Shown here in pieces: positions 17,863 to 58,568 of a stretch of DNA of 59,476 nucleotides. Under the pieces are notes generated by a model. That model did no database searches and was not told where the DNA came from. It was given only the letters and a program-made list of their open reading frames with translations. The DNA comes from a virus (lineage: Duplodnaviria > Heunggongvirae > Uroviricota > Caudoviricetes): the IMG/VR virus record IMGVR_UViG_3300029544_000210, positions 84,406 through 143,881 of that record; one strand, written 5' to 3'. Each line of letters begins with the position of its first letter. Position 1 is the first letter of the stretch. A program made the position numbers and the translations under genes.

Positions 17863-17937
17863 TGGGAATTAGTTCAGCTTGGCTAGAACGCTTGATTTGG
17901 GATCAAGAGGTCGCAGGTTCAAATCCTACATTTCCAA
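17863..17937 (+). tRNA. tRNA-Pro(TGG)
   Basis: CTTGA-TT-TGG-GA-TCAAG arm, GGTTCAAATCC. Confidence 0.85.
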
Positions 17938-17973
17938 CTACTATCCTACTTTGTAGGAAATAAATCAAAGGAT

Positions 17974-18138: not shown

Positions 18139-18147
18139 GTGCTGGCT

Positions 18148-18459: not shown

Positions 18460-18463
18460 TTTT

Positions 18464-18661: not shown

Positions 18662-18688
18662 ATTATGTTACGAAGGAGATGTTACAAA

Positions 18689-19585: not shown

Positions 19586-19788
19586 ATTTTGTTTATAAAC
19601 GTACCGAGACAACCGCAATGAAGATTGCAGGTATCATTGACACAGATAATATGACTGTTGAAGTAGATGGTGGAGAAAAGAAACTTGCTACTCTTCTATC
19701 AGTATTTAATGGTGGTAGTGTTGAAATAAATGTGAAGGTAAAAGAGGAAAGTGAACTCGATGAACCTGTTGAATCTAATGAAGAATAG
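19582..19788 (+). CDS. YonK-like small protein
   Basis: GIIDTDNMTVEV...LATLLSVFNGGSVEINVKVKEE; precedes the phosphoesterase as in SPbeta. Confidence 0.55.
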   Translation: MNFVYKRTETTAMKIAGIIDTDNMTVEVDGGEKKLATLLSVFNGGSVEINVKVKEESELDEPVESNEE

Positions 19789-19795
19789 AGAGTAG

Positions 19796-21031: not shown

Positions 21032-21108
21032 TTATATTTTGTTCTTATGAGGATAGTTTTATACTACCCTCTTTTATTTTTATTTATTTTGTATAGGAGG
21101 AATATAAA

Positions 21109-22164
21109 ATGGCTACATATAATGTACATGCAGGTCACTGTCCACAGGATCAGGGTGCTTATGGTGCAGTTGGTATTTTACAGGAGTCTGTTGAAGACAG
21201 AATCGTCAAGAATGCTGTAATTGCAAAGTTAGAAGCACTTGGACATACAGTTTATGATTGTACGTGTGATGAAAACACGTCACAGAATGGTTGTTTAGCA
21301 GCGATTGTTGCTAAATGTAATTCACATAATGTTGATTTAGATATATCTATACATCTTAACTCTGGTAGAGATGATTACGAAGGCGATGATTCTACTGGTG
21401 GTACAGAAGTTTACGGATATGACACTGGAACAGAAGAAATTGGTTCGAAGATTTGTGAGGCAATTTCAGAAAAACTTAATATTAGGAACAGAGGATTTAA
21501 AACCAATTCAGGACTTTATGTTCTTAGAAACACAAAAGCCCCTGCTATCTTAATTGAATGTTGCTTCGTGGATGATAGAGACGATGCTAACAGATGGGAT
21601 GCTGAAGCCTGTGCGAATGCTATAGTCGAAGCCTTAACAGGCGAAGTAGTATCAGAAGATTCAAGTGAAGATTGTTCTGACAATGATAGTTCGGATAATA
21701 ATGAAACTACAGGTGGTAGAACTAATGATTTAGGTCATGTTGATGTTTATTATAGGGCTAAGTCAAATAATCGTTGGTGGGATGAAGTTCATGATAGAGA
21801 TGATTGGGCTGGTGCTAGTGATGATCAGGCAATTACAGGTATTGCCATTGGTGTTAGTGAAGGTTATGTAAGATATCAGGTTCACTTACTTAACGGCGAT
21901 TGGCTTCCAGAAGTTGATGGCTATGACATTAATGATGACGAAAATGGTTACGCAGGTAACGGTAGAACACCTATTGACGCATTAAAAGCAGTATTCTATA
22001 CACCTGATGGTTATGAATACAAGTGTCTATATATACAGGTATCGCCACAGGGTATGGACGAATATTACCCTGTTCAGATAGATGATCAAACTGTAAATGG
22101 ACAGGACGGATATGCTGGTTGTTTTGGTAGATATATTGATAAGGTTCAGCTTTGGGTTGAATAA
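21109..22164 (+). CDS. N-acetylmuramoyl-L-alanine amidase (Amidase_3) with C-terminal cell-wall-binding repeats
   Basis: HAGH...E...SIHLN...GTEV...LYVLRNTKAPAILIECCFVD; C-terminal YQVH...WLP...YAG..ID repeats. Confidence 0.9.
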   Translation: MATYNVHAGHCPQDQGAYGAVGILQESVEDRIVKNAVIAKLEALGHTVYDCTCDENTSQNGCLAAIVAKCNSHNVDLDISIHLNSGRDDYEGDDSTGGTEVYGYDTGTEEIGSKICEAISEKLNIRNRGFKTNSGLYVLRNTKAPAILIECCFVDDRDDANRWDAEACANAIVEALTGEVVSEDSSEDCSDNDSSDNNETTGGRTNDLGHVDVYYRAKSNNRWWDEVHDRDDWAGASDDQAITGIAIGVSEGYVRYQVHLLNGDWLPEVDGYDINDDENGYAGNGRTPIDALKAVFYTPDGYEYKCLYIQVSPQGMDEYYPVQIDDQTVNGQDGYAGCFGRYIDKVQLWVE

Positions 22165-22272
22165 GATTTTTTTGAGGGAGTAGATCGTATTGACTACTAC
22201 CCTCTTTTATTAAATCAGCATTTATTATATTAAAAGTGCAAAAACATTATAGATTAAAAGGAGATTTTTTTT

Positions 22273-22557
22273 ATGAATAAGACAGAATTAGTTGCAAAGA
22301 CACAGGAAAATATTGATATAAATGTATCAAAGAAGGATTTAACTACTATTGTTGATGGTGTAATAAAATCAATAACTGATGAACTTATAGCAGGTGGCAA
22401 GGTTCAGTTAGTTGGTTTTGGTACATTTGAAGTAGTTGAAAGAGCTGCTAGAGAAGGTAGAAACCCACTTACAGGTGAGTCACTTCACATAGAAGCTTCA
22501 AAAGCACCTAAGTTTAAAGCAGGTAAGGCACTTAAAGATGCCGTAAAGAACGCTTAA
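22273..22557 (+). CDS. hup: HU DNA-binding protein
   Basis: MNKTELV...VQLVGFGTFEVVERAAREGRNPLTGE...PKFKAGKALKDAV. Confidence 0.95.
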   Translation: MNKTELVAKTQENIDINVSKKDLTTIVDGVIKSITDELIAGGKVQLVGFGTFEVVERAAREGRNPLTGESLHIEASKAPKFKAGKALKDAVKNA

Positions 22558-22568
22558 TTTGAAAGGTT

Positions 22569-23165
22569 GTGATTATTATAAAAACATTACATTTTGAAGA
22601 CTATGAAGATTTTGCTTGTGTTGTTTCAAATACATACGACAGAATAAAATCTGATGACAAATACAACTCAATAGACGTTGTTGCTAAATATGAAGATGCA
22701 AAAGAGATTATTCGTGAACTTATTGGAATTGGATACGGTATTGCATTTATTGATAAGTTTGGTAATCCAGAATGGGATGGGTATGACGATGCTTTCGTTA
22801 TTAGCTTATTAGATGATGAAATCTGGTGCGAACCAGTTAAGAGAGATAATGGATACATCTTTATTGAAGCCGATGTTGTATACATCTTTGATGATTGTAA
22901 TTCCAAGATTATTCCAAAGATTGAAGCTGATGAGGTATATGAAGTAGGAATTGGCAATGAATATGATGATTGCGATGGTGATTGTGAAAACTGTCCTGCG
23001 CATGATGAAACTTATTTACATACTTCTGAAGACGAAGATGGAAATACTCACGGATTTACTGCTAGTAGATCAGATGGCGACTCTTATATGAGTTATTCTT
23101 ACTACTCTAGCAATGAGTTAAGTCATGAAGATATTCAGAAGATGTTAAAGGCTTTTGGATTTTAG
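22569..23165 (+). CDS. acidic hypothetical protein with CDGDCENC motif
   Basis: ORF track; start uncertain. Confidence 0.7.
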   Translation: MIIIKTLHFEDYEDFACVVSNTYDRIKSDDKYNSIDVVAKYEDAKEIIRELIGIGYGIAFIDKFGNPEWDGYDDAFVISLLDDEIWCEPVKRDNGYIFIEADVVYIFDDCNSKIIPKIEADEVYEVGIGNEYDDCDGDCENCPAHDETYLHTSEDEDGNTHGFTASRSDGDSYMSYSYYSSNELSHEDIQKMLKAFGF

Positions 23166-23208
23166 ATTATTTGGAGTGTGTGGCGTATGTTGCACGCTCT
23201 TTTTGTAT

Positions 23209-23288
23209 GGGTAGGTCGTATAGCGGCAATTACACCTGACTGTAAATCAGGCGCTTCGGCTTCGTTGGTTCGAGTCCAACCCTACCCA
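23209..23288 (+). tRNA. tRNA-Tyr(GTA)
   Basis: GGGTAGG/CCTACCC acceptor, CT-GTA-AA, variable arm. Confidence 0.9.
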
Positions 23289-23452
23289 CTAATTTAATGT
23301 TTTCTGTGAATGGAAACAGAGAATAAATATATGTTCTCATGATTAGTGGCATAGCTGATTATGGGATTTATGATGAATATATAAAAATGCGACAAGAAGC
23401 GGTTAGTTAATGATACTACTGCTTCTTTTTGTTTGAAAGGAAGTGAGATTTT

Positions 23453-24487
23453 ATGGGTAGAAAAATACAACACAATAATATTGTTACCGATGAGTTATTG
23501 ACTCAGTGTAATAAAGAAAATATAGAATTAGGAAATGACTTTTTGGATTATCTTCGTTCAGTGGATAGATCTCCGAATACAATTAATGCGTATAGGCGTG
23601 ACCTTTTTATTTTTTGGGTTTATCTACTTAAGCATTGTGACAACAAATTCTTTATTGATTTATCTAAGAGGGATATTGCTCGTTATCAGAGTTTTTGCCT
23701 TACTGAATATAAATGGTCGCCAGCTAGAATGCGTAGAGTAAAATCTACTCTCTCATCGCTTTCAAATTATGTAGAAGCTATATTGGATGATGAGTATGAA
23801 AATTTTAAACCAATTATACGCAAAATTGAAAATCCTGCAAATGAGAAAGTATTTACTAAAACTGTATTATCTGATGAGCAAGTACAGGGAATGCTTGATT
23901 ATTGGGTTGAAAAAGGCAAGTATGACAAGGCTTGTATTTTAGCATTAGCTGCATTTAGCGGTAGACGTAAGAGTGAATTACCACGATTCAAAGTGTCTTA
24001 TTTTGATGACGAAAATATTATATATGGTTCTTTATATAAGACACCTGAAAAAATCCAAACAAAAGGAAGAGGATCTCGTGGAAAAATGTTAGTGGTGTAT
24101 ACACTTGCAAAACCGTTTAAGCCATATTTTGATTTGTGGATGAATTATAGAAAAGAACACGGAATTGAATCAGAATGGTTATTTCCAAAGAAAGTAAATG
24201 GAGAATATATAGATGAACCTATGGATTCAAGCACTCTTGACAGTTGGGCTGATACATTCACCAAACATTTAGGAGAAGACTTTTATTTCCACAGTCTTCG
24301 TCACTTCTTTACAACTTCTTGTTCTCGAAGTGGTCTTCCTGATGATGTAATTCAAATGCTAGTAGGTTGGAGTTCCCTTGATATGGTTTCAGTGTACAAG
24401 GACATTGATGCAGATGAGCAATTCGCAAAATATTTTGCAGATGGAGAAATTAAACAAGTAGAACAAAAATCACTCTCTGATTTGTAG
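23453..24487 (+). CDS. tyrosine recombinase (YomM-like)
   Basis: SAM-like N-domain; GRRKSE, TKG, HSLRH, GW, Y catalytic residues. Confidence 0.9.
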   Translation: MGRKIQHNNIVTDELLTQCNKENIELGNDFLDYLRSVDRSPNTINAYRRDLFIFWVYLLKHCDNKFFIDLSKRDIARYQSFCLTEYKWSPARMRRVKSTLSSLSNYVEAILDDEYENFKPIIRKIENPANEKVFTKTVLSDEQVQGMLDYWVEKGKYDKACILALAAFSGRRKSELPRFKVSYFDDENIIYGSLYKTPEKIQTKGRGSRGKMLVVYTLAKPFKPYFDLWMNYRKEHGIESEWLFPKKVNGEYIDEPMDSSTLDSWADTFTKHLGEDFYFHSLRHFFTTSCSRSGLPDDVIQMLVGWSSLDMVSVYKDIDADEQFAKYFADGEIKQVEQKSLSDL

Positions 24488-24587
24488 ACAATCCCGATGA
24501 AGCTTTCATCTAACCCTTGACAAATTCAAAAATATGCATTCTTAAAACAAAAGAATAAATAAATACAACAACTTATCTATAGGTAGA

Positions 24588-24960
24588 AAATGGTTCTCTA
24601 CACACTCTTCGGAGTATCTGAGATGATGGATACACCGCCCATCATAGATAAGTTAAATAAGCTGCTCACATCCAAAAGAAGTGAGGGCGGTCTATCAATC
24701 CGTTGATAGATTTTTACAAGTGAGCTGTCACTGACCGATATGTGACATAAATATAAAGGTCGGTTTGCGAAATTATTGACCTTTGGAATGGTCTAAAACT
24801 TCCCACTGCTACTGCTTATTGGCGGTGTTATGGAGAGGTCTTGCCTTAGTAGACGATTAACATATTTTGGCATTTACTATTCATATAGCATTGTAAGTCC
24901 TAAAACGGTCAATATCAACCATAGAAGTGATCGTGCTTCTCTGCGTTAATGAGAACCATT
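24588..24960 (+). ncRNA. putative ~370-nt structured RNA of unknown class
   Basis: Closing helix AATGGTTCTC/GAGAACCATT, at least 6 internal helices and a possible H-type pseudoknot. Confidence 0.5.
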
Positions 24961-25322
24961 AAATTCAAGTTTGTACTACAGTGTCTTTCGAGCTTGTGGT
25001 CTAAATATTAAAAACCAATGTCTATTAGGCTTTTATATGAAATGAAATTATCGCTAGTTTCTTTTCTGAATTTTTGAGATAGACAATAGCGAATGACTAC
25101 TGGGCGGTCTGACATCTGGAAAGACAGATAAATATGGAGTGTCACTATATAAGTGCAATATATTTTGGGTGACACAGGTAGTAATCTCCTTCTCGTGCGT
25201 TAGTTAGCGAGTAAATCTGATTAAAGTGATTTTGAAAAGCATGGATACCTAGTGTGTCTAATTTATAAACTGGATGTGTACAGTCCAATATCAGCTAGTT
25301 AGTGCTTTATGCTGATTATCAT

Positions 25323-25396
25323 AGCGGAATGACGAGCAATGGAAGCTCACTTGGCTCATAACCAAGAGTATGCAGGTTCGAGTCCTGCTTCCGCAA
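25323..25396 (+). tRNA. tRNA-Met(CAT), initiator-like
   Basis: CT-CAT-AA; 1:72 A-A mismatch; GGTTCGAGTCC. Confidence 0.85.
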
Positions 25397-25444
25397 TTCA
25401 ATGATTAAAAGGAAAACGAAAAATAAAAGAAAGGAGTATGTATT

Positions 25445-25741
25445 ATGGCAAGTAGATTGATTATTGAGCAAGAGCCATTAAAAGTTGGACAGGTTCGTAA
25501 AGTTACATCCAACAATGGTGAAAAAATAGATTCTATTACTTTACTCTTGAACAATAACGTGGAAATTTTGTTCGTGCCACGGAATGACGGAACATTAGAT
25601 TTTTCAGTAAGTGATCCACAGTTTGATACGTCAAATTTAGATTGCTCTATTGATAAAGAAGTATTGCGTGATTTATTTATGGCTATTAGAGACGGATATA
25701 AACAAGTAATTGCAAACGAAAGCGAGGGTACAAATTCATGA
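25445..25741 (+). CDS. hypothetical protein
   Basis: ORF track, AAGGAG RBS. Confidence 0.7.
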   Translation: MASRLIIEQEPLKVGQVRKVTSNNGEKIDSITLLLNNNVEILFVPRNDGTLDFSVSDPQFDTSNLDCSIDKEVLRDLFMAIRDGYKQVIANESEGTNS

Positions 25742-26214
25742 AATTAAATATTAGTAAAACTATTGATGAAAACGTTATTAGTGTAGATATTTCTGTCGCA
25801 GAATTAGGTACATCAGATACCGATGCTGCTACTGAAAAAGATATGTTGCATAATTTTGTTAGAACAATCGAATATTCTAAGATATCCTTTAAATCTAATA
25901 TGAAAGCTGATTCTAATGGAGATCCAGTTACAACTGATAGTGAAGTTGATGATTCAACTATTATTTCTGTTGAGTTAAAAGATATTATTAACCAGTCATT
26001 TGTTGTAGATGAAAATCTTCATATTACATTCTCTGTAGATGTTACAAAGATTCCAGAATCAGAAGTTAAAGCGCCTTTTGATAGTGTCGAAAAGATTGGT
26101 AAGGCAAAGGTTGAACTTTTCGCTACTAAGATTCAGGAAGAAATTGGTAAAAAACTTGCTGAGATTCGTGCTTTAAATACTAAGTTTGAAGGTGAAACAG
26201 AAGTTATTCTGTAA
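25738..26214 (+). CDS. hypothetical protein
   Basis: ORF track, ATGA overlap. Confidence 0.7.
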   Translation: MKLNISKTIDENVISVDISVAELGTSDTDAATEKDMLHNFVRTIEYSKISFKSNMKADSNGDPVTTDSEVDDSTIISVELKDIINQSFVVDENLHITFSVDVTKIPESEVKAPFDSVEKIGKAKVELFATKIQEEIGKKLAEIRALNTKFEGETEVIL

Positions 26215-26245
26215 AAATAATGGGTGGTACTCTTCCACCCTACAA

Positions 26246-26318
26246 GGTCTGTTCGTCTAGCGGTCTAGGACATCGCCCTTTCACGGCGGCAACAGGAGTC
26301 CGAATCTCCTACAGATCA
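26246..26318 (+). tRNA. tRNA-Glu(TTC)
   Basis: GGTCTGT/ACAGATC acceptor, CT-TTC-AC; T-loop TCCGAAT variant. Confidence 0.85.
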
Positions 26319-26407
26319 TTAAATAGCTGATACTTAAATGGACATCGAGGCTATACATTTTTTGTATAGTAACAGAGAGTCGCTTCATGAGGTGACTCTT
26401 TTATTAT

Positions 26408-26495
26408 GTAGTATTGGCAGAGTTGGTATTACACCTGATTGCTAATCAGAGGTCATCGTTTATTCGGTGCATAGGTTCAAGTCCTATATACTACG
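26408..26495 (+). tRNA. tRNA-Ser(GCT)
   Basis: GTAGTAT/ATACTAC acceptor, TT-GCT-AA, long variable arm. Confidence 0.8.
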
Positions 26496-44495: not shown

Positions 44496-47435
44496 ATGGC
44501 TAATTCAGATATTATTAAGATTGGTTTTGATTATAGAGCTAGTCTTGCACAATTTGAAAAGGAAACAAATGGTGTATTCGATGGTATTAGTAATAAAGCT
44601 GGTAAACAAAAAATCACAATTCAATTAGATGCAAAAGATGATAAAGTAATTGATAAAATTAAGGAATTGCAGAAACTCAAATTAGACAAGTTCACATTCG
44701 AGTTTGGTAATTCTGGATTAAAAGAACAGCTACAGACATTTGATAAATTAGAGAATAAGATTAATGAGATTATTAGTTTATCAAAAGGAATTGACTTATC
44801 ATTTAATACCAAAAATAAGACAGATGCTTATAACCAGTTAAAAAAATATGCAGATGCTTTTAAAGACTATTATGGTAATGAAGAAGCAATGGCTACCAAT
44901 GCAGGTGCAAAGGCTGGTTATGCGTACTACAAAGCCTATGAAGAAGCATTGCGAAAAGGTGTCGCACAAAGTAAATTAGAAAAAGTAACTATTGATTTTG
45001 ATGTAAACGATTCATTTTTCAGTAAAGAGAGAATCGTAGGAAATAGAATTAAAGACTTTGAAAATTTTCAAAAGTATGGTAATGCAGATGAAAGTAATTT
45101 AATTGCAGAAATCACATCACTAGAGAATCGGCTTTTGAAATTTAATTCTGCTTATTCTAAAGTGAAGGCTAATTTAGGCGATGCGCCAATTACACCTGAA
45201 ATCACAAAAAACATTGAAGAATATGTTAGGATGTTAGAAGTTGCAGAAAGCAGAGCAAAAGATGCAGAATTATTTGGATATTCAAGCGAAGATATCAATT
45301 CGGATAAAGACCTTGCAAATATGTATCTTGACTTTGCAAAAGAAGATGCTATTGCCGAAAATAAAAAATATATTGAATCATTAAAACAAGAAGAGACACA
45401 GGCTATTGCTACTGCTGAAGCAGAACAGAAATTAGCAGAAGCTCAAAAGGAAACAGTTTCTAATACTTCTAATTCAAATAATTCTCAAATTGAAGAGTTA
45501 AAATCTGATATTCAAGAGGTAAAAACTGAACTTGGTGATGTAAAAGATAGAATTTCTTCTATTGAATCGAATGGTTTTGAAAATGTACGAGATGATGTTG
45601 AAAAGACAAAGGAATCTGTAAAAGAACTTAACAGTGAATTTGCAGAAATGAAATCCAACCTCTCCTCTACTCCACAAGAATCGAATATTTCATCTGGAAA
45701 TACAAACCCACCTAATCCACCTAAAAAGGATAGATACGCAAAACGAAGGAAAATATCTGAAGAAGATTTCTTAAATTACTCTCCTAATAGAATTAATGAA
45801 AAATTATCAAATTCTGGATATACAATTCTTGGTGAAACTGTAAACACAGAGCTTGTTGATGGTCTTGTAAAGGTAAGTGCAAAAATAAAAGATGCTGATG
45901 GCGCATGGAAATCGTTTTCCGCAAAAGTCGATGCTGATGGTAATATTTTTGAACAGCGTTTTAAGACTGTAACAAATGGTGTAGATAAATTAGAAACGGC
46001 ATTACAGAATTTTGGTCGTGAAACTGCTCCTGCTCTTACATATCAAGAAACCTTAGATAAGGCTCAGAAAATCAAGAATAGTTTAAATCTTGGTGATGAG
46101 TATTCTATCAAGGTTGATAGTAGTGAATTTGTAACCATTACTAAAAAGTTGACAGATGTTGAGAACGCAGGTTCTTCTGTTACTCAGACCTTTAAATCTG
46201 CACAAGATGCCATTGATAACTTTGGTAAAGCTACATCTAATTCTGCCGAAAAAACAAGCGTTGCGTTAAAGAGTGTCAAAAGTAATGTCAAAGAAGTAGT
46301 TGATGAAACCGAAAAACTTGCAAACGCTCAAAAAGAACAGAATGCCAATGTAAACCTTAATAAATATGATAAACAGTTAGATTCTTACAATGGTAAGGTT
46401 GATAAATATCAAGCCACTATTGCAAGGTTTAATGATGGTGGTTGGACAAGTGATACATATTTAAAAAATGTGCAAGCTGTACATGATGCGGTTAAACAGT
46501 ACGCAACTCTTCTGGACAATATAAAGACTAATCAAAATGGTATCGCTAGTGATGAGGATATTCAGAACTTAGATAAGTATGAAAAGAAAATAAAAGATAC
46601 TATCGCTACTGTTACTAATATGTCGGCTTCTGAGAAGGGATATAACTTTGTATCGGCTCAGAAAGAATTAGACAAGATTCACAAGCTTCTCAATGAAAAT
46701 AGTAAAATGTCTTCTGAAGCAAAAGCTAAGATTAAATCTTACTATGCAGAAATTGAAAGTGGTAATCCTAGCATGAGTTTGGATAGAATTCATGGCGAAA
46801 TCATGAAGATTTATAATGCTGAAGTCGAAGCTGGTCGTGCTGGTAAAAGTTTCTTTGACACTTTAAAGAATAGCGGATTCCATCAGATTGCTGCTCAGAT
46901 GGCAGGAATGTTTGGTGTTTATGATGTTATTAATGGATTGAAACAGGTTGCTTCTACTGTTAGAGAATTAGATACTGCATATACCGAAATGCGTAAAGTG
47001 TCAAATGAATCTGCACAGTCATTAAAGAATTTTCAGAAAGAAAGTTTTTCTACCGCTGACTCGGTTGGTACTACTGCTCTCGCATTACAGGATGCCACAG
47101 CAACATGGATGCGTCTTGGTGAGTCATTAGATGAAGCCAAGGAATCGGCAAAAGATGCAACAGTTTTATTAAATGTATCAGAATTTGAAAATATTGATGA
47201 AGCAACGGATTCATTAGTTGCAATGTCACAAGCTTATAAAGAGCTTGACAAAATGGAAATTATTGATGTCCTGGATAAAATCGGCAACGAGTATAGTATC
47301 AGTACCAATGAACTTTCAACAGCATTGAAAGATTCGGCTGCTGTATTAAAAACTCAAGGCAACGATCTTGCTGAAAGTGTAGCTCTTATTACTGCTGGTA
47401 ATGCCATAACACAGGACGTTTCTAAAACCGCAGGT
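44496..47435 (+). CDS. tape measure protein, exon 1 (980 codons)
   Basis: TP901-type core ELDTAYTEMRKVS...WMRLG...GNEYSIST...ITAGNAITQDVSKTAG stops mid-domain at a group I 5' splice site. Confidence 0.85.
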
Positions 47436-47854
47436 GAAACATTGCCTGAAAGATATAGAAATATATTTTATAGAACATATTTAACTGCAAGGGCAGCCTA
47501 AAGCTCTATGCCACAATATAGAGGAAACTACTATATGATGGATTCAAAAATTAGAGATATTACAATGGCTTGTTTGCAACGAAGTACCCTAACGTATCCC
47601 GTAGACCATACGGTACTTGAGTCGAGGGTAAACGCTCAACGATCATTCTCCGATGAGGAGATTCAGACTTGTGAATAAAGGTGGAAATCCTGAATATCTG
47701 AATCATAAGAAGTACGGCTTAATCGCAAATGAAGTCGGTGAGAACCCGTCAAATGGAAAAGGTATGTTCCCTAATGCATAGCAAGGGAATAAGACATGAT
47801 CTGTTACTCTTCCGAAAGGTAGAGAGATACTATTATACATGAGGAATAAAAGGA

Positions 47855-48022
47855 ATGAAGAAATTCGATAAGGAGTATTCAACTCAATTTTCTCCTGAAA
47901 AGGAGTATTTATTACAACATGGTATTAAACCATCTTTTGTAAAAGAAATAAATGAAGTAACTACATATAAGTATACGAAAACGTCAGAGTTATTTAAACT
48001 ACTGGCGATTTTTTATGCGTAA
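47855..48022 (+). CDS. intron-encoded small protein (55 aa)
   Basis: MKKFDKEYSTQFSPEKEYLLQHGIKPSFVKEINEVTTYKYTKTSELF; GAGG/AAGG RBS. Confidence 0.55.
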   Translation: MKKFDKEYSTQFSPEKEYLLQHGIKPSFVKEINEVTTYKYTKTSELFKLLAIFYA

Positions 48023-48045
48023 AATTAGAAAGGAACAGATAATAT

Positions 48046-49617
48046 ATGGGTGATAGTAAATTGAAATATACAACAGAATATTTAAAAGAATTATGTAATG
48101 AAAAAGATTTAATTTTAGTTGGAATAGATAATAAAGAAGTAAACGGTAAAAATAGACGTTGTGCTTGTATTTTATGTAATAAACATAAAGAAAAAGGAGT
48201 ACAATGGATTCCTGTTGAAAAAATAGGTAAGAATAAAAAGCCATGTCAATATTGTAATCATTCAAAATTAAAAGAGACATTTAAAGAGGAAATGACTATT
48301 ATAAATCCAGATATTGAAATATTATCTGAGTATAAGAATTGGAACACAAAGGTAAAATGTAAATGTAAGGTATGTGGTCACATATGGGATGGCACTGTTT
48401 CATGTTTATTATATGGTAATGGATGTAAGATATGCGGACATGTAAAACGATGGGATTCGAGAGGTAGAAAAACAACCCAAGATATCATAAATGAAGTTTT
48501 AGAAGTATCCCCTGAAATTGAAGTGTTAGGTGAATATACAGGAAGTAATAATAAAATTTTATGCCGTTGTAAAAAACATGATACAAAATGGAAAATTCAA
48601 ATACATACATTATTAAAAGGTGCTACCAATTGTGAAGAATGCCAATTAGAGAAAGCCAGAGAAAAGTTTGGGTTAAACAAGGAAGATGTGTATGCAAAAA
48701 TCAATGAGATAAATCCTAATATTAATATATTGTCTGAATATATAAATATTAAAGAAAAAATGAAGTTTTATTGTAAAAAACATAATTATGAATTTGAAGC
48801 AGCTCCTTCTTCTTTTCTATATAAAGAATCGTTATGTTGTCCAATGTGTATGTATGAAAATGATAGATGCACAAAATTAATTGATGATGATTTATATAAA
48901 TATTATGTAGAAGATGTTCATGGGTATATTTATAAAGATAGAGAAGTTGTCAATGGGCATACAGTAATATCTTTCTTGTGTAAAAATCATATTGATAAAG
49001 GTATCCAAAAAGTACCATTTCATAATATAAAATCTTCAAAATGTTGTTGTAGATATTGTAACGGATATTTTAGAACTACAGATGAATTTAAAGAAATTAT
49101 AAAAGAGAAATTACCAAATATTGAAATTACAGGCGAATACACATTAGCTGGTGAACGAATTGAATGCAGATGTAGAACTTGTGGACATGAATGGACACCG
49201 CTTGCATATAACTTGATGACTGGATTTGGTTGTCCAAATTGCAATGCTTCCAATTCTGAAAACAATGTAGGAAAAATATTGGATAAATTTCAGCTTAAAT
49301 ATGAACGTCAAAAAAGATTTGATGATTGCAAGGATATAAATACTCTTCCATTTGATTTTTATCTTAATGACTATAATGTTGCCATAGAATACGATGGTGA
49401 ACAACACTATATGCCTGTTAATTGGAATGGTAAAATGTCAGACGAAGAACTAAATAGAGCATTTGAATTAGTTCAATCCCACGACAAAATAAAAACTGAA
49501 TATTGTAAAGAACAAAACATTCAATTAATTCGTATTCCATATTGGGAAAAGAATAATATTGAATGTTTTTTATTTGATAACTTATTAGACTTAAATATAT
49601 TACAAGAAGTATCATAA
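48046..49617 (+). CDS. intron-encoded zinc-ribbon repeat / Vsr-like homing endonuclease
   Basis: Multiple CxxH/CxxC repeats; C-terminal SNSE...LPFDFYL...IEYDGEQHY...HDKIK..YC...LIRIPYW. Confidence 0.8.
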   Translation: MGDSKLKYTTEYLKELCNEKDLILVGIDNKEVNGKNRRCACILCNKHKEKGVQWIPVEKIGKNKKPCQYCNHSKLKETFKEEMTIINPDIEILSEYKNWNTKVKCKCKVCGHIWDGTVSCLLYGNGCKICGHVKRWDSRGRKTTQDIINEVLEVSPEIEVLGEYTGSNNKILCRCKKHDTKWKIQIHTLLKGATNCEECQLEKAREKFGLNKEDVYAKINEINPNINILSEYINIKEKMKFYCKKHNYEFEAAPSSFLYKESLCCPMCMYENDRCTKLIDDDLYKYYVEDVHGYIYKDREVVNGHTVISFLCKNHIDKGIQKVPFHNIKSSKCCCRYCNGYFRTTDEFKEIIKEKLPNIEITGEYTLAGERIECRCRTCGHEWTPLAYNLMTGFGCPNCNASNSENNVGKILDKFQLKYERQKRFDDCKDINTLPFDFYLNDYNVAIEYDGEQHYMPVNWNGKMSDEELNRAFELVQSHDKIKTEYCKEQNIQLIRIPYWEKNNIECFLFDNLLDLNILQEVS

Positions 49618-49676
49618 AAAAGAGAATAATATAATAGTATCTGATACAAGAGTTGCGACTTGTATCAAACATAAAG

Positions 49677-50315
49677 GGTGTTCGTACAATTAGTCTGCGA
49701 CTCGCAGGAACTGAAGAAGCGAAAGATGAATTAGCTTCTTTAGGCGAAGATGTAGATGATTTTGTTGTACAAACCAGTTCAAAAACACAGCAAATAATCA
49801 AAGATTATACTGCTGTTGCGTCTAATGCATATCAAGGTGTAGATGTTTTAGATGCTAACGGAAATCTCCGTAATACATATGATATCCTTTTAGACATCGC
49901 CAAGGTCTATAAAGAGATTCAAGAAGAAGATAAAAAGGCTGGAACAAACCGAGCAAATGCTTTAGTAGAGGCTATTGCAGGTAAGAACAGATCCAACATT
50001 GCTTCTAGTATCCTGCTCAACCCAGAAATGTTAGAGTCTGTGTACAATTCTGCACTTGACGCAGACGGAGCGGCAATGAAGGAACTTGACTCTTACATGG
50101 AATCTCTTGATGCCAAGGTAGCACAATTCCAGAATAGACTTCAAGAACTTGAGTCTGACTTGGTAAGCTCTGATTTTCTGAAGGGTATAGTTGATTTTGG
50201 TACAGGAGCAATCCATGTACTAGATCAACTTATTGACAAATTTGGTGTATTACCAACTGTTATCGGTATCGGTGGTGCTGGTACAGGTATCTTTAAATTT
50301 ATTAAGAATTTTGAT
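49677..50315 (+). CDS. tape measure protein, exon 2 (213 codons)
   Basis: GVRTISLRLAG...LRNTYDILLDIA...IAGKNRSN...FIKNFD; no own start; bounded by two splice sites. Confidence 0.85.
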
Positions 50316-50907
50316 TGGGTTTTCAAACCTTATATAAAAACTCTCTCCAACAGTTTTTAGTTGGTCAATCATAGATAAGAGAATAACATAATGGCGTTAC
50401 AATCAAATCTATGGATACATGGGATTCTTAATAAAAACTCTGCAAACACTTTAGCGGAGTATAAACTATTACATGGAGGAGTAAATGCTTGAATGCTTGG
50501 TAGCTTAACAAACTACCCACGGATCACATAACAAACCGTAATCCATATGGTTATATTGGATGAGGTTGCGAAAGCAGAAAAAATTGTATATGTGGATATA
50601 TGAAAATATCGAGGAGACTTGATAGGTGTCTAAGTATCATTAATAACGGGCAACGAGCAGGACGGTACTCTACATTTTTAATGTTGACCATATATAGAAA
50701 TGAAAGGTCATATATAGAGAATAACTATATAAGAGAGCAATCCCCAACGACATACCCATCCTCTAAGTGAGTCATCGCCTTAAGTATGACATTCGCTTAT
50801 AATGCATAGTGTACATTGCGATTTCGGAATTCAGTAATGTATTTGAGTGTGTGTTTAACTCAACTAGAAAATTCCAAAAAATAACTTAAAATTTTTAGTT
50901 CAGAGTA

Positions 50908-50936
50908 TTGACAACTAACTTGCGACATTATATAAT
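50908..50936 (+). promoter_or_regulatory. consensus sigmaA promoter inside intron 2
   Basis: TTGACA-17-TATAAT upstream of 50964 ORF. Confidence 0.8.
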
Positions 50937-50963
50937 TAGACTTGTAATAAAGGAGGTATATAG

Positions 50964-51152
50964 ATGTCAGATGTTAGAGAAGTCTATGTTACTGCCGAGG
51001 TTGCAAAAATATTAGACATTACACCTGCTTATCTTATTAGATTGGCTAAAAATCTTAATCTTAATGAAAGTCAATTTAGAGAAGCTGGAAAACGTAATTA
51101 TCTTTTTAGCAAAGAATCGGTAGAATTAATTAAAGGAAATTTAAAAAGATAA
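50964..51152 (+). CDS. small MerR/excisionase-like HTH protein (intron cargo)
   Basis: VYVTAEVAKILDITPAYLIRLAK...RNYLFSKESVE; AAGGAGGT RBS. Confidence 0.7.
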   Translation: MSDVREVYVTAEVAKILDITPAYLIRLAKNLNLNESQFREAGKRNYLFSKESVELIKGNLKR

Positions 51153-51262
51153 AAGACATCCATCGCTCCGACCAAAGAACAAATGGATGTCTTACATATG
51201 AGATTTCTCTCAATTTCTATTCTACTATACTTTCAAAATTTTATCAAATAAATTTTGGAGGA

Positions 51263-52048
51263 ATGCTTATGAATGAATTAAATTTCATTAAACGATTTGA
51301 AACTATTGATGTGGAATGTTTTAATTTTAATGGTAAAGCATTATTTAATCCATATCACGTTGGAAAATGTTTGGAAATTAGCGACAGTAATGTAAGAAAT
51401 TATCTCGCTAAAATGAACGAAAATCAGGCGGTTATATTAAAAAATTCAGAAGTCCGTAATATGGACTTCCGAAAATTAAATAATCGTGGTGAAAAATTCA
51501 TTACAAAAAGCGGAGTATATAAACTTATTTTTAAGTCACAAACGGATAAGGCAGAAAAATTTCAAGATTGGGTTACTGACGAAGTGTTGCCTTCTATTGA
51601 AATGACTGGTGGTTATATTCCTATTAAAGAAGATGAACCAGATGAATTAATAATGGCAAGAGCTGTCCAGATTGCTAATGAAACAATCAAACACAAAGAT
51701 GAAATTATTGCTAATCAGAAAAAGAGAATTGCATCATTAGAAGAAACTGAAAAAGATTGGAAACTTCTAATGGATACCAAAGGCACTTTTTCGATAAACG
51801 AGATTGCACATTTTATAGGAATTGGCGAATATAGACTCTTCTCTTATATGAGAAATATTGGATTACTTTTCAAGAATGAAAACGGAGACAATGTTCCATA
51901 TGAAAATGTAGTAAATAAAACTAAATTTATATCTGTTCCTGCTATTGCACCTGATGGAACTGCTCATATACAAACACGAGTTAAACCTGAAGGCATCTCT
52001 TACATAACAAAGCTACTTCGTAAATATGGATATTTGGAGGTGGCATAA
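51263..52048 (+). CDS. BRO-N / KilAC phage antirepressor (intron cargo)
   Basis: FITKSGVYKLIFKS...AEKFQDWVTDEVLPSIEMTGGY; C-terminal ANT/KilAC QTRVKPEG. Confidence 0.85.
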   Translation: MLMNELNFIKRFETIDVECFNFNGKALFNPYHVGKCLEISDSNVRNYLAKMNENQAVILKNSEVRNMDFRKLNNRGEKFITKSGVYKLIFKSQTDKAEKFQDWVTDEVLPSIEMTGGYIPIKEDEPDELIMARAVQIANETIKHKDEIIANQKKRIASLEETEKDWKLLMDTKGTFSINEIAHFIGIGEYRLFSYMRNIGLLFKNENGDNVPYENVVNKTKFISVPAIAPDGTAHIQTRVKPEGISYITKLLRKYGYLEVA

Positions 52049-52221
52049 TGAAATACATAAAGCTTATAGCATTAAAAGTTAATGACTTCTCTTCTACTAT
52101 TTTCTTTGAAAATAATTATAAATTAAGTGATAAGGAAATATTAGAAGTTGATAAGAAATGTTGTGAAAATGACGGATGCACTTGTGTTATATTACATATA
52201 AATAGTAACATTCAAGCATAA
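52048..52221 (+). CDS. small hypothetical protein (intron cargo)
   Basis: MKYIKLIALKVNDFSSTIFFE...; TAATG coupling and GGAGGTG RBS. Confidence 0.5.
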   Translation: MKYIKLIALKVNDFSSTIFFENNYKLSDKEILEVDKKCCENDGCTCVILHINSNIQA

Positions 52222-52307
52222 TTCGCAACAGAGAATAACAAAATAGGACTGTCGTGAGACAGCCCTACTGATGAAATAAAGGAGAATAAATATATAAATG
52301 AAGAACA

Positions 52308-52493
52308 TTAATGATGAAGATTGATATTGATATCCTTAGAAGTCATTTCTGCTAAACTTCCAGTTTTGGAATCACTGTAGTCTTTGCAGATTTTTGCAAT
52401 GTAACATTTGCCAACGATTGAAGCTATGTGGCATATTACATAACATATTCCAAGAATTATTGAACCGATTATCTCGGCATATAATATATTCAA
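52308..52493 (-). CDS. small membrane protein (intron cargo, antisense)
   Basis: IIGSIILGICYVICHIASIVG TM; GGGAGGTG RBS. Confidence 0.6.
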   Translation of the reverse strand: MNILYAEIIGSIILGICYVICHIASIVGKCYIAKICKDYSDSKTGSLAEMTSKDININLHH

Positions 52494-52710
52494 TATGTAT
52501 TTTCACCTCCCTTCTTAGTAAGAATATAAATAAGTAGGGAATATTCTTTTAGCCCAGAATGGGCAGATATTTATTCCGAATGCCACAAAAATAGACATTG
52601 GGACAACCTTCGGTTATAGAGTGTTATGGCACACATCTATGTTGTTTCTCCAATGTCTATATTTTACCATTGTACAAAACTAAATACAATCCAGAACAGC
52701 AGTTTGTATT

Positions 52711-52887
52711 TTATAAAACAATGTGTTTCGATATATATTCTTTTCTTTCAACTTCATTCATTGAGAAGAATTCTTCAAAATCAATATCGAGTTTTATGCA
52801 ATTACAATTGCATACTCGGCATACATTTGTAAGATAATGTGTATATGTAACTCTGTGACAATTTGGACAATAATGAATTTTTAGCAT
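52711..52887 (-). CDS. small zinc-ribbon protein (intron cargo, antisense)
   Basis: MLKIHYCPNCHRV...CRVCN...; AAGAG RBS. Confidence 0.5.
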   Translation of the reverse strand: MLKIHYCPNCHRVTYTHYLTNVCRVCNCNCIKLDIDFEEFFSMNEVERKEYISKHIVL

Positions 52888-52962
52888 AATTGACTACTCT
52901 TTTATTATATCTATTTATTTGGACGGAATAACCTAAATTATTATGATGTGAGGTATAAAATA

Positions 52963-53103
52963 ATGACAAATTTAAATATTAAAATTAAAATCAACGAATT
53001 AGAGGAATTAAAACCAGCTATTGAATATATAAAGGCTCTTGATCTTAATAAAATACCCGAACTCAATACAGAAGTGATAATTGAATTCGGGTATGGTAAT
53101 TAA
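52963..53103 (+). CDS. small hypothetical protein (intron cargo)
   Basis: MTNLNIKIKINELEELKPAIEYIK...; GAGGT RBS. Confidence 0.5.
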   Translation: MTNLNIKIKINELEELKPAIEYIKALDLNKIPELNTEVIIEFGYGN

Positions 53104-53327
53104 TTTTCTTTTACCACTTCTATAACTGAAATTTCTGACCTAGCGATGGTAAATGCATTATTCTCAGAATATAAATGTAAATCATATCCCGTAGAGTATT
53201 GATGATTGAATATTTCATCACCTTCAAGAGTATGTTCGGATATACCCTTATGTCCATAATATACTTTTTTGATATGTTCATACTCTTGAACTTTACCATC
53301 TTTGTTTTTAATTTTAAATGTGTACAT
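53100..53327 (-). CDS. hypothetical protein (intron cargo, antisense)
   Basis: ORF track; GGAGGAG RBS. Confidence 0.65.
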   Translation of the reverse strand: MYTFKIKNKDGKVQEYEHIKKVYYGHKGISEHTLEGDEIFNHQYSTGYDLHLYSENNAFTIARSEISVIEVVKEN

Positions 53328-53408
53328 TGTGATACTCCTCCGTAATTTGATAACACCATCATACTACTTTGAGGAATATTTTACCATTCGGAACATTAGT
53401 TCCCATTC

Positions 53409-53819
53409 TTAAAAATCACTCTTACAATTATTACAGTGCCATTGTTTTTTAACCTTTTGTGAGAATATACCGAACATTGCTACTGATGTCGCTTTTGATA
53501 CTCCTGATATTTTCTTACAATTTGTTGAATTACAATATGGACAATGAACCTTGTTTAATAACTCCTGTGCTTGTGCGTTGGCTTGGGCGATTTGCTGTGG
53601 GGTAAGGTCGGGAATCGCAGGATTGTTTTCTTTAGTTCCATATTGTTTACTTAATTCACACCATAGTTGTTGAGCATCGTCATCTGAACAATTTGTTAAT
53701 TCTTGAATAAACTTCATTCCTTTTAATGTTTGATTTTGAGCAATTATCATCAACATTTTTGTTGCTTCCGTGCTTTCAATTTGATTATCAAAATAATATT
53801 TTGCTTCTTCGTAATTCAT
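53409..53819 (-). CDS. protein with C-terminal zinc ribbon and hydrophobic hairpin (intron cargo, antisense)
   Basis: VHCPYCNSTNCKKIS...AMFGIFS...WHCNNCKSDF; AAGGGG RBS; TGATATAAT -10 just inside the 3' splice site. Confidence 0.7.
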   Translation of the reverse strand: MNYEEAKYYFDNQIESTEATKMLMIIAQNQTLKGMKFIQELTNCSDDDAQQLWCELSKQYGTKENNPAIPDLTPQQIAQANAQAQELLNKVHCPYCNSTNCKKISGVSKATSVAMFGIFSQKVKKQWHCNNCKSDF

Positions 53820-53867
53820 AATAAACCCCTTTTTTGTTTTTATTATATCAGACAACACATAAATACG

Positions 53868-56800
53868 CAATTAAAGACTGTTGGAGAGTCTGTTAGCGTT
53901 ATATCAAAACTTGAAGAAGCTTTAAAAGAAATAGACAATATTGGTACTGTTGGTATGCCTAGAATGGCACAGGTAAACAGATTGTTAAAAGAAACTTTTG
54001 CTGACTGTTCCATTGAAGCTGCAAAAATGGCAATTTCGCAAAGTACATTAAATAAAGAGCAAATAGAATTGATTTTATCCTCAAAAGGTCTTACAGGTAA
54101 TATTCTTGAAACTACTACTGCTGAACTTGCTAATACTACTGCTACTAATGCTATGGCTGCGACTGAGGGTACTGCTACTACTGCCACTGTTGGATTTGGT
54201 ACGGCTATCAAAGGTCTTGGTGCATCATTAAAAGCACTTGCAGTTGCACATCCGATATTACTTGCTATAACAGTAACTTTAGGTGCTATTGCAGGAGCAG
54301 TTAAGATAGTAGATGCGTTAACAACATCTATGAAAAAACAGCGTGAAGCATTTGAAAATGCACAACAGGACTATACGGATGCTTGTACAAAGCTTGATGA
54401 GTTAAAAAATAAGCTATCAGAGACTACAAGTAGAATAGCTGAATTAATCGAAAAGTCTAATAATGGTACTATTACATTAGTAGAACAGGCTGAACTTGAT
54501 AAGTTGAAACTTACTAATGAAGAGTTAAGACTTATGATACAGAACCAGGAAGAGGTTAAAAAGCAGAAAGCAAAAGAAGCCTCTGACGAAGCATATAAAA
54601 CATACACAAGAGAAAATCGCATGGAAACTGACGATACTGCTAGTAAACAGGAACAGTATTATCAAGCATCAAGTGATGCAGATGGTTTCCACGTTGGTTC
54701 ATTCTTGGATAGAGCGAGTGAATTATCTGATTTTGATTATGCTATTAAAGCTAATGAACAGAAATTAGAGGAATTCCAGAAACAGAATGAAGAATTACAG
54801 GCACAATTAAATGCTACTTCTGATGAAAGTCTTAAAGCTCAATACCAACATAGTATTGACCTCAATAACAATCTTATATCTAATTATACAAATTCCAATG
54901 AAAAGTTAAAAGAATCTGCTGAAAAGATGGCAGAGGAAACCTTCTCAGATAAGATAGAGAAGTATGAAGCATTCAAGCAGACATTGATGAATTCTATGAA
55001 TTCTGATGGTACATTTGACAATCCACAATATCAAGCTATGTGGGATGATATGCAGAAGAAGGAAATGGACTTATACCGATATACTGGTAGGTCTGCTGAA
55101 TGGAATACAGTTAAACTAGATTCTATTATAGATGATAAAAGTTATCAGGCAATAGTTGATAAGCTTAAAACAGCACTTAATGAAGGTACTCTTACTGAGG
55201 ATGATATTAAGGGGATTGATGTTCTTAATGATAAGCTGAATGATACTGATTTAATCTTAGAAGATGGACAATCAGCAGCAGATGTATTTATTAAGTATCT
55301 TAATAAGCTTAAAGAAACTGGAACTGATGCTGCACAATCTATATCTGGTGCATTTACTGACTTAACTTCTCTTCTCACAGAATCAGATGATAAGTCACAA
55401 ACAGCCAATCTTGCAGACCTTCAATCAGAAGCAGACCTATTATCTACAATCCAAAAAGAATTAGATGATAATGGACGTATAGGTGTATCATCTATGCAAA
55501 GCATTATCAAGAAATATCCAGAAGCAAAGGCAGCACTTTCGGATTATATGCAAGGCATAATATCTGAACAAGAGTTATTTTCACAGCTTGAAACTGTCTA
55601 TGAGAATGACAAAAATCAGTACATACAATCTGTAGTAGATAAGTCACAGACTGATGAAGAATTCTTCAATGCAGTTATGACTAATTACCCAGAGTTATAT
55701 AATGAACTTTCTAGTTTGTATGGCAATGACGTTGATAACTGGTCAAATATGGAACAGGCTAAGCTGGAAATTACCAATAAAGCTATTAAGGAATTAGCAG
55801 GTGTCTGGTCTGACTATTTCAAAGTTGTTCAGGATGCAAATGGTAAATTGATGGTACAGACAACTGGCTGGTATGATGCAGGTATGTATTCGGCAGATCC
55901 AGATGAAGTAGAAGCTATGGATGAAGAATACAACAATATGTACAACCATTTCCAAAGTATTGTTGATGGTGCTAATGCTGCGGTAGATGCTTTAGATAAT
56001 TATAGCTTTAAACAGGTTAGTTCAAGTATCAACCTTGATTGGAAAGGATTGGGTAAAGATTCCTCATCTTCATCTAGTGGAAGTGATTCATCTTCATCAT
56101 CTGAGCCATCGCCACAGGACTTCAACTGGGTAGAACGTCTCTTATCCAAAATTTCCAAAGCATATGACCGTTTAAAGAATAAAGTATCTGATACAACACG
56201 TACATGGCTTAATCGTAATAATGCCCTCTCCGATTCAATGGAAACATTGTTATCAGAGATTAACGCACAATCAGATGCTTATGATTTTTATATGGATAGA
56301 TTTAATTCATATGACTTAAGCGATTATTACAAAGATCAGATTGCAAATGGCTCATTTAATATAGAAATTATTTATGATGATGACCTTAAAGATGCAATTT
56401 CAGATTGCCAGGATTTATATGATAAGGCTCAAGATGCTGCTGATGCTGTACAATCATTAAACATAGAGATAAGACAGCTTGCTAAGAGTAGATTTGATAA
56501 TATTCAATCACAGTTTGAAGAAGTTCTTGGGAAAGTAAATTCTATTAAGGATTTATATAGCAAGGATAATGACCTCTTAGAAGAACAGGGCTGGTTTGCT
56601 TCTACTCTGCTTAATAATTCTATGATTGAACAAGAACAGAAGAATCTTGAAAAGCTTGAACAGGAAAGAGATGCACTTACAAAGGCACTTAATTCTGCTA
56701 TGGCATCTGGTAAAATTGAAGCTGAATCTGAGGATTGGTATTCTATGCAGTCTGCCATAGATGATTGTACTTCAAGTATATATGATGCTAAAAAGGCATT

Positions 56801-58568
56801 AGTTGAGTATGATAATGCTATCAGACAGATTAATTGGGATGCTTTCGATAGGACTAGAGATGATGTCAGTAACCTTATAGACGAAACTCAGTTCCTTGTT
56901 GACTTACTAAAGGATGAAGATATTACTGATGATAATGGTAATATGAATGACAATGGTAAGGCTGCACAAGCATTAATTGCACAGAAGTATCAATTATATC
57001 TTAATCAGGCTAAAGCTTATAAGGATGAGATACTTAAGATTAATGAAGAGTTAGCTAATGATCCTTATGATAAGGAGTTGCTTGATAGAAAACAGGAACT
57101 TATTAATGCTCAACAGGAGGCTATTAATTCAAGTATATCTGAAAAGGATGCCCTTAAGGACTTGGTTCAAGAGGGCTATGATACATTTCTTGATAAGCTT
57201 GATGAAGTTATACAAAAGTACAAAGATCTTATGAATCAGCAAAAGGATGCTTATGATTATGAGAAATCTATAGCTGAGAAAACAAAAGCTCTTAACGCTT
57301 TAGAAAAACAATACTCTGCCGTTCAAGGAGATAATTCTGAGGAAGGTAAGAAGAATATCCAGCAGCTTAAAGATCAGATTAATACTGCCAAAGATGATTT
57401 GAAAGATACTGAGTATGAAAAGCTTATAAGCGATACTCAAGCTATCCTTGATAATCTTGCCGATACTACAAAAACGTGGCTTGATGAGCGACTTGATTCA
57501 TTTGATATAACTATGCAGGAAATTATTGACCAGTCTAATGAAAATGCTTCTAATATCTCACAGACTATCACTGATACTGCTGAGAACTATGGTTATAAGC
57601 TTAGTGAATCTATGTCAAATATATGGAGTACAAACGCTAGTAATATAACAAATGGTATTAATAGTGTATTAGGTGACTTCAGTAACAAGTTTGTTGAAGG
57701 CAACAACGCTATTAATAAGGTTTGTGGTGACATTAATGCTGCTGTACAAGGTTTATTGAAGAATAGTAATGATGAAGCACAAAGAGTTGCTGATGAGATT
57801 GCTAGACAGCAGGCAGAACAGAATGCTAATACCGATGGTGGTTATTCTGATGGCGGTAGTTCGTCTGGTGGTGATGATTGGTCTGATAATTGGGATAACT
57901 CTGATAGTGGCTCATCTGATGATGGTGGTGGCTCTTGGGGTGATTGGTTCTATCATTTGGAAGACGATTATCCGAAGGACTTACTTGAAATTGATACAAG
58001 TATTGTAGACCGTTTAAAATATAATGATATAGACAGTTCATTTGGTGCAAGAGCTGATTACTACTCTGCTATGGGTGGTGACGGAGAATATTATGGTAGT
58101 TCAGATCAGAATATTTGGATGTTAGACCAGCTCAAATCTCATGGCTATAAAAATGGTACTAAATCAGCAATAGCAGGTATACACCGCACAGATGAGCAAG
58201 GTCTTGGTTCAGAAGTTATCTTCTCTAAGAAATATGGTACTCTTCGTAAATTAGATGCTGGCGATATGGTATTTAATGCAGACCAAGTTGAAAAGCTTTG
58301 GAATCTTTCTAAGGGTATTACTGCTCCAAATATGTATATGGATAATTTGGGTGCTAAGTTACCAGATATTCCTAATATATCGAATAACTTGGCTAATAAG
58401 GTTGATGTAGAATTTGGAGATGTCACATTATCATTACCAAATGTTCACAATTATGAAGACTTTATGAAACAAGCACAACAAGATCCTAAATTTGAAAAGA
58501 TGGTTCAGAATATGACTCTTGGACAGACTTTAGGTAGAAATTCACTTAGTAAACTGACCTTTAGATAA
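53868..58568 (+). CDS. tape measure protein, exon 3 (1566 aa)
   Basis: Coiled-coil with TM segment, DFNWVER, HGYKNGTK...DEQGLGSEV tape-measure C-terminus; no credible RBS/start, begins after intron terminal G. Confidence 0.85.
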   Translation, partial: QLKTVGESVSVISKLEEALKEIDNIGTVGMPRMAQVNRLLKETFADCSIEAAKMAISQSTLNKEQIELILSSKGLTGNILETTTAELANTTATNAMAATEGTATTATVGFGTAIKGLGASLKALAVAHPILLAITVTLGAIAGAVKIVDALTTSMKKQREAFENAQQDYTDACTKLDELKNKLSETTSRIAELIEKSNNGTITLVEQAELDKLKLTNEELRLMIQNQEEVKKQKAKEASDEAYKTYTRENRMETDDTASKQEQYYQASSDADGFHVGSFLDRASELSDFDYAIKANEQKLEEFQKQNEELQAQLNATSDESLKAQYQHSIDLNNNLISNYTNSNEKLKESAEKMAEETFSDKIEKYEAFKQTLMNSMNSDGTFDNPQYQAMWDDMQKKEMDLYRYTGRSAEWNTVKLDSIIDDKSYQAIVDKLKTALNEGTLTEDDIKGIDVLNDKLNDTDLILEDGQSAADVFIKYLNKLKETGTDAAQSISGAFTDLTSLLTESDDKSQTANLADLQSEADLLSTIQKELDDNGRIGVSSMQSIIKKYPEAKAALSDYMQGIISEQELFSQLETVYENDKNQYIQSVVDKSQTDEEFFNAVMTNYPELYNELSSLYGNDVDNWSNMEQAKLEITNKAIKELAGVWSDYFKVVQDANGKLMVQTTGWYDAGMYSADPDEVEAMDEEYNNMYNHFQSIVDGANAAVDALDNYSFKQVSSSINLDWKGLGKDSSSSSSGSDSSSSSEPSPQDFNWVERLLSKISKAYDRLKNKVSDTTRTWLNRNNALSDSMETLLSEINAQSDAYDFYMDRFNSYDLSDYYKDQIANGSFNIEIIYDDDLKDAISDCQDLYDKAQDAADAVQSLNIEIRQLAKSRFDNIQSQFEEVLGKVNSIKDLYSKDNDLLEEQGWFASTLLNNSMIEQEQKNLEKLEQERDALTKALNSAMASGKIEAESEDWYSMQSAIDDCTSSIYDAKKALVEYDNAIRQINWDAFDRTRDDVSNLIDETQFLVDLLKDEDITDDNGNMNDNGKAAQALIAQKYQLYLNQAKAYKDEILKINEELANDPYDKELLDRKQELINAQQEAINSSISEKDALKDLVQEGYDTFLDKLDEVIQKYKDLMNQQKDAYDYEKSIAEKTKALNALEKQYSAVQGDNSEEGKKNIQQLKDQINTAKDDLKDTEYEKLISDTQAILDNLADTTKTWLDERLDSFDITMQEIIDQSNENASNISQTITDTAENYGYKLSESMSNIWSTNASNITNGINSVLGDFSNKFVEGNNAINKVCGDINAAVQGLLKNSNDEAQRVADEIARQQAEQNANTDGGYSDGGSSSGGDDWSDNWDNSDSGSSDDGGGSWGDWFYHLEDDYPKDLLEIDTSIVDRLKYNDIDSSFGARADYYSAMGGDGEYYGSSDQNIWMLDQLKSHGYKNGTKSAIAGIHRTDEQGLGSEVIFSKKYGTLRKLDAGDMVFNADQVEKLWNLSKGITAPNMYMDNLGAKLPDIPNISNNLANKVDVEFGDVTLSLPNVHNYEDFMKQAQQDPKFEKMVQNMTLGQTLGRNSLSKLTFR

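Follow-up and report, generated by a model that had tools for sequence, protein, structure and literature searches.

A predicted group I intron with an extended P10 helix and a probably split P7 in the tape-measure gene of a provirus

Architecture of the interrupted tape-measure gene

We analyzed a stretch of 59,476 nt (positions 84,406 to 143,881 of the IMG/VR record IMGVR_UViG_3300029544_000210; hereafter the window) and found that its tape-measure protein (TMP) gene is interrupted at 50316-53867 by a predicted group I intron. The best explanation, with a probability of about 0.68, is a conserved variant of the group I type that combines an extended P10, the lack of a conserved 3′ domain, a probably split P7, and swappable cargo and C-terminal alleles, and that is spliced in cis. 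The 154.8-kb source record is of the provirus class and has two integrase matches; terminase, portal, and one structural gene lie upstream of the TMP gene, which is in three pieces:

44496-47435, plus strand: TMP exon 1 (PF10145, phrog_4211)
47436-49676, plus strand: intron 1, group I, with a canonical-looking P7, a 6-bp P10, and an endonuclease open reading frame (ORF) at 48046-49617 (read from sequence; phrog_559/681)
49677-50315, plus strand: TMP exon 2, with the U of the predicted U.G pair at the 5′ splice site as its last base (in-frame join to exon 3)
53868-58568, plus strand: TMP exon 3, 1566 aa, the first 21 nt of which are the P10 target (phrog_4211; duplex and allele comparison)

Joined in a script, the three exons give a single open frame of ~2,760 aa, a count to which the intron-1 junction contributes one codon too many. 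Exon 2 joins exon 3 in frame and without an internal stop, and uninterrupted TMP homologues are present among the relatives (L015, L018, L075, L076, and others).

The guide duplex and the 3′ splice site

The elements that would define the two splice sites of the second intron are as follows:

50343-50363, plus strand: extended P10 guide, in the P1 loop (pairing with 53868-53888; allele and lineage comparison)
50364-50368, plus strand: internal guide sequence (IGS), the 3′ strand of P1, GTCAA, pairing with 50311-50315 (TTGAT, the exon-2 end; read from sequence)
53867, plus strand: omega-G (G in 30 of 30 loci)

The guide abuts the IGS on its 5′ side and forms 21 consecutive pairs (19 Watson-Crick and 2 G.U) with the exon-3 head, exactly as an earlier note on this DNA had described. 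The exon-3 head is also the best partner of the guide in the window (-32.8 versus -23.8 kcal/mol for the next site) and in the whole 154.8-kb genome, the guide's own complement left out (-31.3 versus -25.3 kcal/mol). The P10 of intron 1, put at about 6 bp in that note, is indeed only 6 bp (AACATT at 47438-47443 with GGTGTT from 49677, read from sequence). P1 carries the U.G pair at the 5′ splice site (TTGAT/GTCAA) and, judged by eye, co-varies in relatives (GAU/GUC, GGU/GCC, and GCU/GGC).

We examined 42 loci, including the window: exon 3 lies downstream in 30, seven are truncated, four are chance matches, and one (L059) was missed by the search pattern but is real, with its G and tag located 7.1 kb beyond P7. 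Omega-G is present in all 30 loci with exon 3 downstream, the introns of which are 2.2-5.8 kb long. Nine exon-3 alleles, separated at <60% identity over residues 8-67 (one of them seems to derive from the window's allele by deletion), have complete frames of 1297-1575 aa and share the paired 21-nt head, with an identity of 0.86 over nt 1-21 and 0.49 over nt 22-42. On the intron side, the identity is 0.41 and positions -2 to -12 are unconserved; only the G is conserved there, and therefore neither a conserved P9.0 nor a conserved 3′ intron domain was found in these alleles. Within the tag, 181 of 189 cells are paired, 11 of the 19 departures from Watson-Crick pairing keep G.U, and all nine alleles keep the same third base in the Val/Leu, Gly, and Glu codons. 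In distant phages, the guide and the exon head change together: 13 guide/exon pairs, picked by eye, average -14.4 for cognate and -5.6 for non-cognate combinations, and the cognate average was reached by 0 of 100,000 permutations (the introns of L072 and L089, to which no guide was assigned, were excluded). The co-variation of P10 with exon 3 that the earlier note had suggested looking for is thus found in relatives, both as pairing kept among the nine alleles and as co-changes in distant phages.

Because omega-G is conserved, the variation tolerates G.U, and the guide co-varies with the exon across lineages, the comparison supports an extended P10 by which the distant 3′ splice site would be tethered. 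In one lineage (L210, L240, and L249), the intron is free of cargo and only 523 nt long, yet its guide is ~20 bp; the long P10 would therefore be a property of the ribozyme type and no response to the separation of the exons.

An in-frame ATG often ends at omega-G (L067, L068, L069, L017, L081, L034, L053, L234, L236, and L237). Exon 3 as a stand-alone gene was considered and rejected; the ATG ending at omega-G is found in several relatives and not in the window.

Ribozyme core and split P7

The entire core is located within the first ~550 nt of the intron, and its parts are:

50476-50811, plus strand: group I core, with P3 (50476-80/50759-63), P4 (50486-91/50654-59), P5 (50494-99/50647-52), P6 (50660-62/50741-43), P7 (50747-54 with 50807-10; G264 equivalent at 50749), P8 (50764-99), and J8/7 (50800-06) (hand assignment, checked in 13 lineages)
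50812-50862, plus strand: two hairpins inside the 3′ strand of P7 (lineage comparison)
50864-50865, plus strand: displaced C311/U312 equivalents, the predicted completion of the guanosine-binding site (CT/CC co-variation with position 262)

P4, P8, and the two following hairpins co-vary over the 13 lineages; the P3/P4 motif was missed in L217. For the numbering and the 262-312 pairing we follow the Tetrahymena intron (G264-C311). In the contiguous P7, the G264 equivalent faces G rather than C, and P7 also contains an extra bulged A. Among 88 oriented loci, 76 had the P7 pattern and 75 were left after removal of one chance match; all 75 show A-C-Y-A after the second hairpin, 46-68 nt on, with CT accompanying A262 in 37 loci and CC accompanying G262 in 38. 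The search patterns constrained positions 262 and 263 and left the displaced bases free. A contiguous guanosine site with a G.G pair was abandoned given this co-variation of the displaced CC/CT with position 262, and a G264-C311 pair would form only if P7 is split. P7 is probably split in this intron, with the guanosine-binding C and its neighbour displaced beyond two inserted hairpins. A search for the core DNA in GenBank phages returned chance matches only. The earlier note is silent on the probable split of P7, on the lack of a conserved piece at the intron's 3′ end, and on the swapping of exon-3 alleles.

Cargo of the intron and transcription through it

Between the core and omega-G, the window carries the following cargo:

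50908-52221, plus strand: sense module with a 12/12 sigma-70 site, a helix-turn-helix gene (50964-51152), a Bro-N/ANT antirepressor gene (51263-52048), and a 57-aa ORF (family matches, promoter scan; absent from L001-L005)
52242-52269, minus strand: terminator-like hairpin closing the antisense cargo transcript, abutting the core in many relatives (minus-strand terminator score)
52308-53822, minus strand: mainly antisense small genes (61, 58, 75, and 136 aa, the last a Zn-ribbon; one 51-aa ORF is in sense), variable among relatives
53842-53870, minus strand: antisense promoter-like site TTGCGT-17-TATAAT, the -35 box of which overlaps omega-G and the first codon of exon 3, at the 3′ splice site

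The earlier note had pointed to hairpins, convergent genes, and promoter-like motifs as signs that a continuous pre-mRNA may be rare. The hairpins and the convergent units exist, as does one 12/12 sigma-70 site in sense (50908-50936), situated in the module that most relatives lack. However, both hairpins named there resemble terminators of the antisense strand (at 51154-51193, a sense U-tract is lacking and only the antisense strand was flagged), and promoter-like sites overall are not above chance, with 35 found versus 39.6 expected. In the late operon, strict sense terminators lie 28-45 nt ahead of the next late gene at 31379, 34445, 38602, and 44004, with little room for a promoter, which suggests that the operon is generally read through its terminators.

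Strong intrinsic-terminator-like sites within the late operon are located at 31379, 32785, 34445, 38602, 41502, 43972, and 44004. A predicted antisense promoter is found at the 3′ splice site in L020, L022, L025, L043, and L051 too. The motif GAGAATA occurs at 50378, 50716, 52230, and 49621 of the window, in ribozyme loops and ahead of terminator hairpins, and on the minus strand of the G000 left arm. It is common between genes in sense orientation, where 57 of its 98 minus-strand copies lie. It is partly Shine-Dalgarno and has no clear upstream box as an internal phage promoter; it could be a promoter or an antitermination signal. A YonO-like polymerase was tried as a candidate and rejected, with PF05183 empty and a 957-aa ORF that has neither DxDGD nor Pfam or PDB support. 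This ORF (13446-16319) is a conserved unknown (phrog_8308) with no PDB sequence match.

Splicing in cis or in trans

The earlier note had left two roles for the duplex, to tether a distant 3′ splice site or to join separately transcribed pieces. The evidence above speaks for the tether, but joining in trans as the main route is unlikely. By that route, a 5′ RNA (exons 1-2 and the ribozyme) would end in the cargo and capture, via the long P10, a separately initiated RNA with omega-G and exon 3, which need supply only omega-G and the tag, as in engineered 3′-splice-site ribozymes (PMC6155759). Strict sense terminators are indeed present in 24 of 27 distinct cargos, versus 0.0 in shuffles, so that cis splicing needs read-through; the 12/12 sense promoter past the core has no strict sense terminator behind it. 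On the other hand, the same strict scan found none in the window's own cargo, and the internal promoter is part of a module absent in most relatives. A sense sigma-70 site of at least 10/12 within 800 nt of the 3′ site is present in just three of nine alleles, the late-operon terminators point to read-through, and the long guide is kept without cargo. Furthermore, exon 3 is collinear downstream wherever it was found, never inverted or relocated, and on the same strand in all three loci checked (L006, L059, and L046); instead of the hallmarks of trans-splicing, namely exons at separate loci or strands and a ribozyme in pieces, we see collinear exons and a core in one piece. As to separate transcripts, the scans for terminators and promoters give mixed signals. 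Judged from sequence comparison, trans-splicing is not required, and is a possible but not the likeliest route.

A bolder form of the trans route also appears improbable. It places the intron in a new subclass of group I, marked by a split P7, a P10 of 12-21 nt, and the lack of P9.0, and sees in it a natural 3′-exon-capturing ribozyme that would splice in trans across terminator-bearing cargo and join the N-terminal TMP of one phage to any tagged C-terminal allele, including that of a co-infecting relative, shuffling tail length at the RNA level.

We are likewise doubtful of a regulated form of cis splicing, in which the intron would act as a checkpoint and antisense cargo transcription or terminator read-through would set the timing of TMP mRNA splicing. 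The convergent transcription units, the provirus with its integrases, and a -10-like hexamer (TATAAT or TACAAT) 17-18 nt from the splice-site TTGC in six of nine alleles are consistent with it, but just one of nine alleles reaches 10/12 of the promoter consensus, and an antisense RNA would begin inside the intron and leave the tag uncovered. It is very improbable that the 21-bp inverted repeat acts at the DNA level, as transposon ends or invertase sites, or is left over from a dead intron: it does flank a variable segment, and the cargo of some relatives looks mobile (L022, by eye), but the departures favour G.U on the RNA strand, no inversion was seen among 30 loci, conservation extends to P1, the core, and omega-G, no family match to a transposase or recombinase was obtained for the window's cargo, and the TMP exons are open and in frame.

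Several observations weigh against the cis-spliced variant intron that we prefer. No spliced RNA was seen, although the four presumed-RNA contig sets, with scattered cover and no exon joint, were too sparse to inform on splicing. Rfam returned no group I match at gathering score or at E<=5, and the canonical-looking intron 1 was missed too. For the read-through demanded by the sense terminators, our searches yielded neither an antiterminator nor a phage polymerase. Eight of the 189 tag cells are unpaired, and in L033/L052 exon 3 starts with GAA after GG, so that the first P10 pair is mismatched. Several of the 13 hand-picked guide/exon pairs are related, and not all are from the present intron type, as other types at neighbouring TMP sites are included; the cognate pair is the best in its row in just 6 of 13, and some guides are weak (L019, -3.2). 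The loci generally are related and not independent; all A262/U312 loci belong to one clade, and the 262/312 co-variation probably reflects few events and may be a single evolutionary one. Finally, the record of L215, a fragment searched with a distant query, yielded no exon 3. In five truncated records, the exon-3 search gave 0 of 5, which carries no weight either way.

Proposed mechanism and its implications

For the cis-spliced intron, we propose that late transcription would read through the cargo, as it apparently does through other late-operon terminators. Guanosine bound at the split P7 would attack the U.G site at 50315, and the guide would pair with the exon-3 head, replacing the missing P9.0 and 3′ intron structure, such that omega-G and the 21-nt tag suffice. 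Ligation would then yield a TMP of ~2,760 aa (...KNFD/QLKTVGE...). As the stretch between the core and omega-G would be unconstrained, the intron could become a cargo island and serve as a hinge for swapping a 3′ module (cargo and C-terminal TMP) between phages.

If true, nature would offer a group I intron whose 3′ splice site is set by nothing more than a long guide and omega-G. An essential late gene would thereby have room for kilobases of accessory genes, and the C-terminal TMP part encoded by the exon-3 frames would be swappable between phages. A split guanosine-binding helix, if true, would change the picture of a near-invariant element of the group I core. Both features could be tested directly in vitro with the compact 523-nt relative, which is also a candidate scaffold for RNA editing through capture of a 3′ site. 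The intron would also explain fragmented TMP annotations in gut prophages.

The TMP genes of relatives show other irregularities. In-frame stops lie past the exon-2 match or the exon-3 head in L016/L074, L236, and L237, possibly through assembly errors, recoding, or decay; L017, L019, and L099 have more group I-like insertions elsewhere in the gene; and L006 and L010-L012 have another intron type a few codons away, apparently with C in place of the U at the 5′ splice site, facing A (by eye). Elsewhere in the window, a skipping-rope RNA is located at 24573-24651 and six tRNA genes lie within 16902-26495.

Comparison with known systems

Group I introns in TMP genes are already known, and our literature search, which covered texts other than figures, supplements, and most subscription journals, brought up no description of either a split P7 or a cargo-bearing intron with a long natural P10. 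Like the canonical P7, in Tetrahymena numbering, P7 here, read as split, has a G264 equivalent, a bulged 263, A/U or G/C at 262/312, and an omega-G downstream; unlike it, C311 and 312 are cut off from the rest by two hairpins (46-68 nt), and there is an extra bulged A.

TMP-IVS1/2/3 are group I introns in the tape-measure genes of Bacillus cereus-group prophages, described as IA1/IA2 (PMC2504315). They resemble the present intron in host gene and in that P1 and P10 adapt to the site, but the multi-kb cargo, extended P10, and split P7 seen here are not mentioned in the accessible text of that report, figures aside (PMC2504315). A natural P10 is reported to cover exon nt 2-8, and a stronger P10 or P9.0 is used in engineered trans ribozymes (PMC6155759). 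As in those 3′-splice-site trans-splicing and trans-excision ribozymes, in which a stronger P10 aids capture, the 3′ site would be found here by base pairing; the present P10, however, is ~21 bp and natural, has no conserved P9.0 beside it, and probably acts in cis (PMC6155759). Natural trans-spliced group I introns are described from placozoan and Gigaspora mitochondria, together with a giant corallimorpharian intron removed by back-splicing, all of them mitochondrial (PMC8393795). These share distant exons or gene-carrying introns with the present case, but whereas their flanking intron parts reassemble, the window has an undivided core 5′ of the cargo and collinear exons (PMC8393795).

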